A DNA stretch of 20,000 nucleotides from an uncultured virus (IMG/VR IMGVR_UViG_3300028734_000019) (IMGVR_UViG_3300028734_000019:56109-76108), one strand, 5' to 3'; positions 3,806 through 4,482 are shown, numbered from the stretch's first letter. A program made the numbers and translations. The notes: a model not told the origin generated them from the sequence alone.

Positions 3806-4315
3806 TTAATGTATATTACCTAAATTGTTCAATTCATCGTTTAATTTTGTACCAAGTGCTTCTAAATTTTTCAATTGATTTTTAACTTGATCTATACTAT
3901 TATTAAATTCTTCTTTGATGTCTTCATTGTAATCAGATAATTCATCATTATTCATCAATTCATCTAATTTTTTATATAATTCTTTGTTTTCTATGTTATT
4001 CGCAATATAATCAAATTCATCATTTTCATAATCTTGTCCATATTGGTATTCATTTTCAGATATTTTTTTATTTAAAGTTAGTATCTCATTTTTTGTTTTA
4101 TCAGAAAATTCTTTAAATTTAAAAGTATAATCATCATTTATAAGAGGACACCATTTTGGTTTATATTCATTTTCATTCAAATCAATATAAGGATTATTTA
4201 ATTTTAAATAATTTGACAATACACATACATCAGTGTCTGGTTTTCCTATTGTATCATAATCATACTCAGTATGACAAAAAGGACAATTTAAACATCCATT
4301 TACTATTTTTTTCAT
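3806..4315 (-). CDS. Cys-rich (putative metal-binding) protein with acidic coiled-coil C-terminus
   Basis: CLNCPFC...C...PKWCPL at the N-terminus; heptad-like acidic tail. Confidence 0.75.
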   Translation of the reverse strand: MKKIVNGCLNCPFCHTEYDYDTIGKPDTDVCVLSNYLKLNNPYIDLNENEYKPKWCPLINDDYTFKFKEFSDKTKNEILTLNKKISENEYQYGQDYENDEFDYIANNIENKELYKKLDELMNNDELSDYNEDIKEEFNNSIDQVKNQLKNLEALGTKLNDELNNLGNIH

Positions 4316-4482
4316 TTTAAGTTATTTATTTTTTCAAGCTTTTGCCGTCTTTTTTCATTTGTTTTTTTTCTATTTAGCTCAGCAATCAATCGTTCATCAA
4401 TTTTAAATGAGGATGGATATAAGCTTGCAAAATCTAAGTTAACTACATTAAAAATATTTTCATTTTTTTTATTCTTTTTCAC
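4312..4482 (-). CDS. Unannotated 56-aa ORF: isolated PolB motif A plus RxxKL tail
   Basis: Hand translation from GTG at 4482: MKKNKKNENIFNVVNLDFASLYPSSFKIDERLIAELNRKKTNEKRRQKLEKINNLK*. It fills the gap between neighbours and its TGA overlaps the next ATG (ATGA). Start codon uncertain. Confidence 0.7.
   Translation of the reverse strand: MKKNKKNENIFNVVNLDFASLYPSSFKIDERLIAELNRKKTNEKRRQKLEKINNLK

Follow-up and report, generated by a model that had tools for sequence, protein, structure and literature searches.

The stretch of DNA analysed here, in the following called the window, comprises 20,000 nt and represents bases 56,109-76,108 of a 76,108-bp record of an uncultured virus (IMG/VR IMGVR_UViG_3300028734_000019). 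CheckV gives this record a completeness of 11%, which implies a genome of ~0.7 Mb, and the source is a T4-type huge phage of about that size with 24% guanine plus cytosine, the value found for the record. The subject of this work is a mini-protein gene of 56 codons on the minus strand (Table 1). It encodes a short segment resembling motif A of family B DNA polymerases (PolB), followed by a C-terminal tail that recurs in many small proteins of a related phage. The preliminary description of this locus had reported an open reading frame (ORF) that encodes 56 aa, begins with GTG and overlaps the next gene by ATGA, and its translation and coordinates are exactly reproduced. The TGA stop codon overlaps the ATG (4315-4313) of the downstream 169-aa gene in the sequence ATGA, and the start of the mini-gene overlaps the end of the upstream 217-aa gene by 14 nt. 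GTG is the sole ordinary start, because the stop-to-stop frame spans only 58 codons, two more than the gene itself. A misassembly or frameshift at the poly-A run had been considered as a possible source of error. It can be set aside, as 311 nt at this run are identical in four further contigs (L005, L006, L007 and L076) and the surrounding 3,001 nt contain 0 mismatches. A frameshift fusion of the mini-gene with the upstream gene was also rejected: the upstream gene has its own tail and stop codon, the mini-gene lies in the +1 frame without a plausible shift site, and the sister lineage L021 carries the mini-gene without that upstream gene.

The length of the frame alone carries no weight, because simulated sequence contains 77.6 ± 8.8 open frames of at least 58 codons per 76 kb. 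The mini-protein is found in other genomes, however short its frame. A phmmer search of 1.84 billion representative proteins returned 11 matches at E ≤ 1e-3, all of them 47-57 aa long and none a full-length PolB, and the identical mini-protein is recorded from 17 contigs. Orthologs occupy the same place in sister lineages, with 56 aa, a GTG start and 61% identity in L011 and with 54 aa, an ATG start and 50% identity in L021. Five more members besides L021 begin with ATG at the equivalent position. The family profile A1 collects 15 ORFs from 14 distinct mini-gene-bearing lineages at E ≤ 1.4e-5, and the window protein, which is the first row of the family alignments A1 and A6, scores 4.3e-28. 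Free-standing members comprise 44-79 aa and the single fusion 180 aa. The family signature consists of h-h-x-h-D-[FY]-x-[SN]-L-Y-P and, 17-23 residues further on and close to the C-terminus, of R-x-x-K-[LI]-x-x-[LI]-N, and the window protein fits this signature.

Conservation is concentrated on the residues of the motif and of the tail. In an alignment of 20 rows, D17, L21, Y22 and P23 are invariant and S20, R45, K48 and N53 nearly so. D, L and Y of the motif are kept in all 14 lineages, and every member ends in a tail of the type RxxK[LI]xx[LI]N. The proline is changed in one member only, L115 (LR756502), which stands outside the A1 and A6 alignments and reads SLYS. The pairwise ratio of nonsynonymous to synonymous substitution rates (dN/dS) of the mini-gene is 0.30-0.57, compared to 0.07-0.66 in neighbouring genes. 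The conserved serine is encoded by AGY in 8, by TCN in 5 and replaced by Asn (AAC) in 1 of the 14 members. This mixture of codon types points to selection on the amino acid and not on a DNA site. The corresponding count for the Asp codon is biased, as 11 of the 14 rows were recovered by a pattern that fixes GAT; the Ser, Leu, Tyr and Pro positions of this pattern are degenerate. The reservations expressed in the preliminary description, that the frame might be unconserved or its motif lost in orthologs, thus fall away, since the ORF is conserved in 14 lineages, is under purifying selection with dN/dS below 1, and keeps the motif in its orthologs. From these sequence comparisons, the mini-ORF is very probably a real protein-coding gene.

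A DNA pattern derived from the alignment matched only mini-gene loci, and 0 true polB loci, among the 52 loci collected. In metagenome contigs this pattern returned 57 loci, 30 of them without an in-frame match. The 27 in-frame loci comprise 12 mini-genes (9 of them new), 10 loci with stop codons, 3 full-length PolBs and 2 unrelated frames (L074 and L107). Viral contigs yielded no further mini-genes with the DNA pattern and no match in scans with single proteins (P0012 and P0009). A scan of the viral contigs with profile A1 was dominated by real PolBs, with 4 loci among the matches listed, two of which are PolBs of giant viruses (L022 and L024). A tblastn search of the mini-protein against 50,697 phage records gave 3 weak matches with E values of 0.3-8. 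This search is insensitive, since it missed the mini-ORFs of LR756502 and LR745206, which were later caught by profile: among five published phage records of 0.46-0.74 Mb, the profile search detected mini-ORFs in these two, with 49 aa (LR756502) and 79 aa (LR745206). We take these closest published relatives to be members of the huge-phage clades described in 2020. Searches of the open-access literature led to split polymerases, jumbo-phage surveys and fractured genes and to no motif-only mini-protein. As far as this literature was searched, the mini-proteins are a conserved and undescribed family.

In family B polymerases, motif A reads D-x-x-S-L-Y-P-S, motif B K-x3-N-S-x-Y-G and motif C Y-G-D-T-D-S. 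Residues 17-24 of the mini-protein are DFASLYPS. The six frames of the 76,108-bp record contain the pattern D[FY].SLYP a single time, and it is absent from all of 200 first-order Markov simulations. In the 330-kb relative G001, a loosened pattern (L allowed at the second and N at the fourth place) is present only in the mini-gene ortholog and in the true polymerase. Searching all PDB sequences with the family profile gave 54 matches at E ≤ 10, and the 49 at the head of the list are DNA polymerases of family B, in each case aligned on motif A. An E value of 0.016 is reached by the best match, which covers query residues 6-30. In the language-model Atlas, PF00136 clusters account for 22 of 30 feature matches and include the top one, which scores 0.95 and has 182 common features. 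The PolB of this phage clade is encoded in two halves, as detailed below, and hhalign matches the mini-family to the N-terminal half (N-half) over 14-17 columns with P values of 2.2e-5 and 3.6e-5. At the lower of these values, mini-family columns 13-26 correspond to residues 390-403 of the N-half, and both alignments end after motif A. The PDB profile search and the hhalign comparison thus agree on the assignment of the N-terminal part as motif A that had been proposed at the outset. Likewise, no other polymerase motif is nearby, as had been noted: the motif B and motif C patterns are absent from the mini-ORF and from the whole 76-kb record, and a PF00136 search of this record gave no match. 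Pfam assigns 0 families to the 56-aa mini-protein even at E ≤ 1, so that it also stays below the PF00136 gathering threshold.

The likeness between the mini-protein and PolB is specific but short, covering 14-23 residues. Directly compared, the window protein and the N-half share 7 of 12 residues (E 6e-4). For L073 the match extends to 12 of 17 residues (E 9e-7) and includes the residues after SLYP that are typical of the clade's enzyme. Because it reaches these clade-typical residues, the mini-family most likely descends from a phage-type polymerase. The heptapeptide common to mini-protein and PolB in the window lineage is written in different codons in mini-gene and polB (Ser AGC vs TCT, GAT/GAC, TTA/CTA). 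Across lineages the N-half is 83-91% identical where the mini-protein is only 50-61% identical. Given the different codons and the far better conservation of the N-half, the mini-gene is not a recent copy of the phage's polB.

The mini-protein is built from two parts. Part 1, ~20 residues of the form h-h-N-h-D-[FY]-x-S-L-Y-P, quite probably derives from PolB motif A, and its sequence points to the clade's own gp43-type polymerase, of which it would represent the strand and turn that bear motif A. In part 2, an amphipathic and basic helix closes with R-x-x-K-[LI]-x-x-[LI]-N. The AlphaFold2 (AF2) model is confident for this helix (Table 1) and not confident for the motif part, with a block mean of 53-72 in the predicted local distance difference test (pLDDT).

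We searched for the tail with the pattern [RK]-x-x-K-[LI]-x-x-[LI]-[NKSC] within the last 22 residues. It is present in 62 of 611 crudely called genes of G001 (~10%), in line with the preliminary description, in which the C-terminal part of the mini-protein had been called a common tag. Random internal windows of the same size contain the pattern in 1.1 ± 1.0 of 584 proteins, so that the density differs 25-fold. Most tailed proteins have a length of 50-150 aa. Among the 62 tailed proteins, Pfam assigns over threshold only Tad3 (E 3.3e-34) and DUF6794 (E 5e-19). A BLAST search of the 62 against the larger proteins of the same relative revealed no self-fragment, the best E value of 9.5e-5 falling on AT-rich, low-complexity-looking sequence.

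Some further observations concern the tailed proteins. Many of them, in the window (2103-7987) and in G001, have a small N-domain that looks SH3-like by eye. The Tad3 homolog of the window consists of a Tad3 Thoeris inhibitor domain in its first 125 residues (PF25185, E 3.1e-37) and a 70-residue extension that ends in the common tail (IRYKKLKKLK); it is encoded 2.7 kb from the mini-gene, and its ortholog belongs to the 62 tailed genes. A ResIII-type helicase N-terminal ATPase piece of 220-221 aa (21.8 bits vs a cut-off of 22.5), which is tailed in G001, may be a second case of an enzyme fragment plus tail. A second type of ending, K-[FY]-N-[LI]-stop, is found in four other proteins of the window and in two of L017 (Table 1), and one protein of this set is an ankyrin-repeat protein.

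In close relatives, PolB is split at the fingertip into an N-half of 493-494 aa and a C-terminal half (C-half) of 453 aa. The N-half contains the exonuclease part, motif A and finger helix 1, with a K/E-rich helix at its end; the C-half begins just before motif B and contains motif C and the thumb. The two genes are ~87 kb apart in G001 (L016/L018) and in G002 (L015/L017). N-half-sized frames of 494-495 aa occur in 6 related records, 3 of which also show C-half frames (301-472 aa). All five published records of 0.46-0.74 Mb have N-half-sized frames of 476-515 aa, and 59 of the 62 best C-half relatives have 452-459 aa. The N-half motif flank TTMREFNIS is invariant across three lineages. Fingertip splits in T4-like phages yield active enzymes, as stated in PMC3061061 with reference to Petrov 2006 and 2010. 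Within the clade, two observations of mobile sequence around polB were made. In G006, the C-half has the N-part of an intein (PF14890, E 9e-11) directly behind motif C, and its ORF ends within this intein; the next ORF is large (>383 aa) and without family match, an arrangement that resembles a 'fractured gene' with a split intein. A DUF7487 gene adjoins the N-half gene.

Catalytic motifs are normally conserved only within whole enzymes. Since a free protein of ~50 residues keeps D, L and Y of the motif in 14 of 14 lineages and P in all but one, the motif residues seem to be read by something beyond catalysis, probably a partner surface. We consider it rather probable that the mini-protein acts by binding a partner via its motif. 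The retained residues are those with packing and metal-binding roles in the palm of the polymerase, so that the motif segment is probably placed in a palm-like environment. This favours the PolB C-half, because it is the only phage protein expected to expose that environment when unassembled, and we put it forward tentatively, as a possible though still doubtful partner. In the mechanism that we propose, PolB would be produced as two polypeptides, cut at the fingertip. With N-half and C-half made separately, the unassembled C-half should expose the place in which motif A packs. The motif-A segment of the mini-protein, disordered-looking alone, could dock there as a mimic of the N-half, and the tail helix would tie the mini-protein to whatever reads the common tail. 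As an outcome, the C-half might be held, blocked or recruited. The AF2 model, with its confident helix 30-52 and unconfident motif part, fits a docking peptide. All 5 mini-gene-bearing lineages with a checkable PolB show the split form. A wider proposal may be called 'bait on a tail'. Huge phages would keep isolated pieces of the replicase active site as mini-proteins, each joined to the same type of C-terminal address helix: motif A in the present phage, motif A next to motif B in another clade. These would serve either as a trans motif for the C-half, giving a polymerase form without exonuclease, or as decoy epitopes for a host sensor. In this full form the proposal is improbable.

Several observations weigh against docking on the C-half. 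Of the five published huge phages whose PolB is split, no more than two have the mini-protein at E ≤ 1, and the split enzyme therefore does not require it. The profile searches took in no control phages with unsplit PolB. The N-half and C-half genes are ~20 kb and ~61 kb distant from the mini-gene, which stands among small tailed genes near anti-defence genes (Tad3), away from replication genes. In most mini-proteins the fixed residues are limited to D, S, L, Y and P, with variation in the adjoining positions, which is looser than exact mimicry predicts. A further link to the polymerase, by which the tail would have been copied from finger helix 1 of PolB, was rejected. The best local alignments of the tails do fall on finger helix 1 in 14 of 17 tails (the L011 row is to be disregarded), but the likeness is compositional, and shuffled tails equal the score in 12-248 of 300 trials.

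Next to binding of the C-half, an anti-defence function has to be weighed, which had been raised in the preliminary description as a decoy. Here the exposed motif-A peptide would occupy a host sensor, or else a modifying enzyme, by which B-family polymerases of phages are recognised, and the tail would serve as it does in other tailed anti-defence proteins. The surroundings are in agreement with such a role. The tailed Tad3 homolog belongs to a family for which the relevant passages of PMC13728456 describe inhibition of the Thoeris sensor ThsB by direct binding; the contig also holds a Tad4-domain protein, and RtcB and a DNA methylase are encoded in the window. In addition, apart from a few fixed residues the mini-protein shows fast evolution, as is often seen in arms-race proteins. 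Neighbourhood alone is weak evidence, however, and no defence system that reads PolB motif A came up in the analyses made. Motif A is moreover buried in the intact polymerase and would be an odd epitope. We regard the decoy function as unlikely.

Between 5349 and 642, small genes that overlap one another and are mostly tailed form a co-directional run, which includes the mini-gene and has the gene for the RNA ligase RtcB as its last. In the region 2000-5700 we detected 0 terminator-like sites, and the 36 promoter-like sites there are no excess over shuffled sequence (43.5 ± 5.9). Rfam and tRNA scans of the window gave no RNA genes. The direct neighbours suggest that the mini-protein could be a small subunit of a complex with the 217-aa protein, the 169-aa protein or both, perhaps in a primase-like replication module in which its helix pairs with the coiled coil of the 169-aa protein. 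In all 3 lineages with good context, the mini-gene is coupled to the 169-aa gene by ATGA. The families of the 217-aa and 169-aa proteins (profiles A5 and A2) are each present in 6 of the 14 mini-gene-bearing loci, counts that include several loci with short context. Yet the coupling is not special, because most genes in the region overlap their neighbours. L021 is without the 217-aa gene, and neither neighbour is found in the fetched stretches of L065, L079, L098, L115, L117 and L023, some of which have short context. An Atlas lead at 0.89 links the 217-aa protein to AEP-TOTE clusters. This protein has no PF22548 match in the record at E ≤ 10 and no PDB sequence match, and its AF2 model (pLDDT 45.6) gives a best structural match at Z 4.6, with PrimPol at Z 3.1 on rank 20; with such a model, the lack of better matches is no sign of a new fold. 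The archaeo-eukaryotic primase (AEP)-like fold of this protein is only a lead. As a PolB-like palm, the 217-aa protein was rejected, since hhalign to both PolB halves gives a probability of ~0.1% and thus no link of its family to either half. A family search on the 169-aa protein gave no assignment. Taken together, the role as a subunit appears rather improbable.

Other genes were noted in passing. In L065 and L098 the mini-gene is a few genes away from an AAA ATPase, clamp-loader-like by eye. Auxiliary genes of G000 encode an Hsp70, a member of the GMP reductase/IMPDH family and a histidyl-tRNA synthetase fragment (Table 1).

Table 1. Positions of the mini-gene, its segments, neighbouring genes and further loci (window numbering for the window, otherwise numbering of the record named).
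Feature	Record	Position	Strand	Details
Mini-protein gene	window	4312-4482	-	56 aa; GTG start 4482-4480; TGA stop 4314-4312
Motif-A segment	window	4405-4446	-	residues 13-26 (VVNLDFASLYPSSF); D17 at 4432-4434, S20 at 4423-4425
C-terminal helix	window	4327-4395	-	residues 30-52 in AF2 model; block pLDDT 93-94
Common tail	window	4324-4350	-	RRQKLEKIN, residues 45-53 of 56; R45, K48, N53 nearly invariant in family
Upstream 217-aa gene	window	4469-5122	-	own copy of tail; profile A5 in 6/14 mini-gene-bearing loci
Downstream 169-aa gene	window	3806-4315	-	Cys-rich zinc-finger-like N-part, coiled-coil C-part; ATGA to mini-gene
74-aa gene	window	5125-5349	-	first in co-directional run; dN/dS 0.07-0.16, strongly conserved
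RtcB RNA ligase	window	642-2036	-	E 2.4e-53
Tad3 homolog	window	7188-7772	+	194 aa
Proteins ending in K-[FY]-N-[LI]-stop	window	11112-11522, 11494-12438, 13893-14177, 14179-14517	-	
Proteins ending in K-[FY]-N-[LI]-stop	L017	178-690, 692-1369		
ResIII-type ATPase piece	L037	17930-18595	+	
ResIII-type ATPase piece	G000	10052-10714	+	
Hsp70	G000	53957-55843	-	E 1.8e-197
GMP reductase/IMPDH family	G000	34366-35403	-	E 7.6e-100
Histidyl-tRNA synthetase fragment	G000	37153-37791	-	212 aa
Tad4-domain protein	G000	37788-38675		
DUF6794 fusion	L055	786-1328	-	180 aa
DUF6794 fusion	L100	1-519	+	
GIY-YIG endonuclease and two mini-ORFs	L023	2044-3156	+	
Weak motif-A ORF	L122 (LR745206)	1435-1587	-	LDFSSLYP; no tail
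HNH-endonuclease-like ORF	L122	230-919	+	
C-half with intein N-part	L033 (G006)	1189-2079	-	
Large ORF after C-half	L033 (G006)	1-1149	-	>383 aa

The origin of the polymerase pieces leads to a further explanation, in which the mini-gene is a relic of homing endonucleases. Elements that target the DNA of polB motifs would drag flanking pieces of polB with them, and the mini-ORF would stay open by chance or by hitch-hiking. The module is mobile. A fusion of DUF6794 (E 9e-25) with motif A and tail is present in two contigs (L055 and L100), and DUF6794 bears the tail without motif A in the 330-kb relative. In L023, an unrelated jumbo-phage fragment, a GIY-YIG homing endonuclease (phrog_314, E 6e-32) is directly followed by two mini-ORFs. 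The first, of 61 aa, has the full motif-B pattern K-x3-N-S-x-Y-G-x-x-G and a tail-like end; the second, of 57 aa, has motif A and a tail-like end. By eye, this fragment also encodes proteins like IF3, a RaiA-like factor, GrpE and adenylosuccinate synthetase. LR745206 contains a weak, tail-less motif-A ORF (profile E 0.155) ~500 bp from an ORF that is HNH-endonuclease-like by eye and has no Pfam match at 1e-3. The clade's polB itself is heavily invaded, as seen from the motif-C intein of G006 with the large ORF after it and from the DUF7487 gene next to the N-half gene.

Because the clade's polB is thus a target of mobile elements, transport by homing elements is a reasonable origin of the polymerase pieces. 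It leaves their persistence under selection unexplained. The frame is intact in 14 lineages with dN/dS below 1, and the motif residues stay constant while their codons change. Relatives of the motif-B mini-ORF at 89% and 62% identity retain the motif, and no endonuclease families were found among the proteins of the window. As an account of the gene in its present state, the relic is very unlikely. The captured polB fragment on a tag cassette that the preliminary description had envisaged therefore stands in part: the DUF6794 fusion and the motif-A and motif-B mini-ORFs beside a homing endonuclease speak for a mobile module, and a recent capture from the phage's own polB is contradicted by the differing codons and by the age and diversity of the family. 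A chance open frame that is no gene would agree with the abundance of such frames in simulated sequence, but is close to refuted by family conservation, dN/dS and the switch of Ser codons.

Binding of a partner through the motif would have consequences that depend on this partner. If it is the C-half, a replicase encoded by genes in pieces would have in the mini-protein a natural regulator or alternative subunit. With a host protein as partner, an immune sensor for phage polymerases would be indicated. Either version of 'bait on a tail' would be a new viral use of fragments of the virus's own enzymes. The tail is present on ~10% of the proteome, including a known Thoeris inhibitor, and once its reader is identified, dozens of orphan genes of the largest phages known could be given a role.

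Small interfering proteins of the microProtein or dominant-negative type keep a dimerisation domain of the larger protein in known cases, and not a catalytic motif. The mini-protein is likewise one piece of a domain of a larger protein and could plausibly compete for its contacts. Its tail has no counterpart among microProteins. In comparison with family B polymerases (PF00136; T4/RB69 gp43), the mini-protein has a segment of 14-23 residues with the metal-binding Asp and the SLYP turn, as in motif A. It is without exonuclease domain, motif B, motif C and thumb, and at 56 aa it cannot polymerise. The 'fractured genes' with split inteins and homing endonucleases, as far as they are outlined in PMC2677866, differ from the window, which is without an endonuclease, and from the mini-protein, which is without intein blocks. 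Similar to them are the motif-C intein in a sister lineage's polB, with a large ORF behind it, and the pair of mini-ORFs next to the GIY-YIG gene in L023. The closest parallel in gene arrangement is the split gp43 of T4-like phages. As in the examples treated in PMC3061061, the cut in this clade's PolB falls on the fingertip and separates finger helix 1 from motif B. The halves given there, after Petrov 2006 and 2010, are 2 bp to 3 kb apart, compared to ~87 kb in this clade. Beside these two halves, the mini-protein gene is a third, extra gene that corresponds to neither of them.

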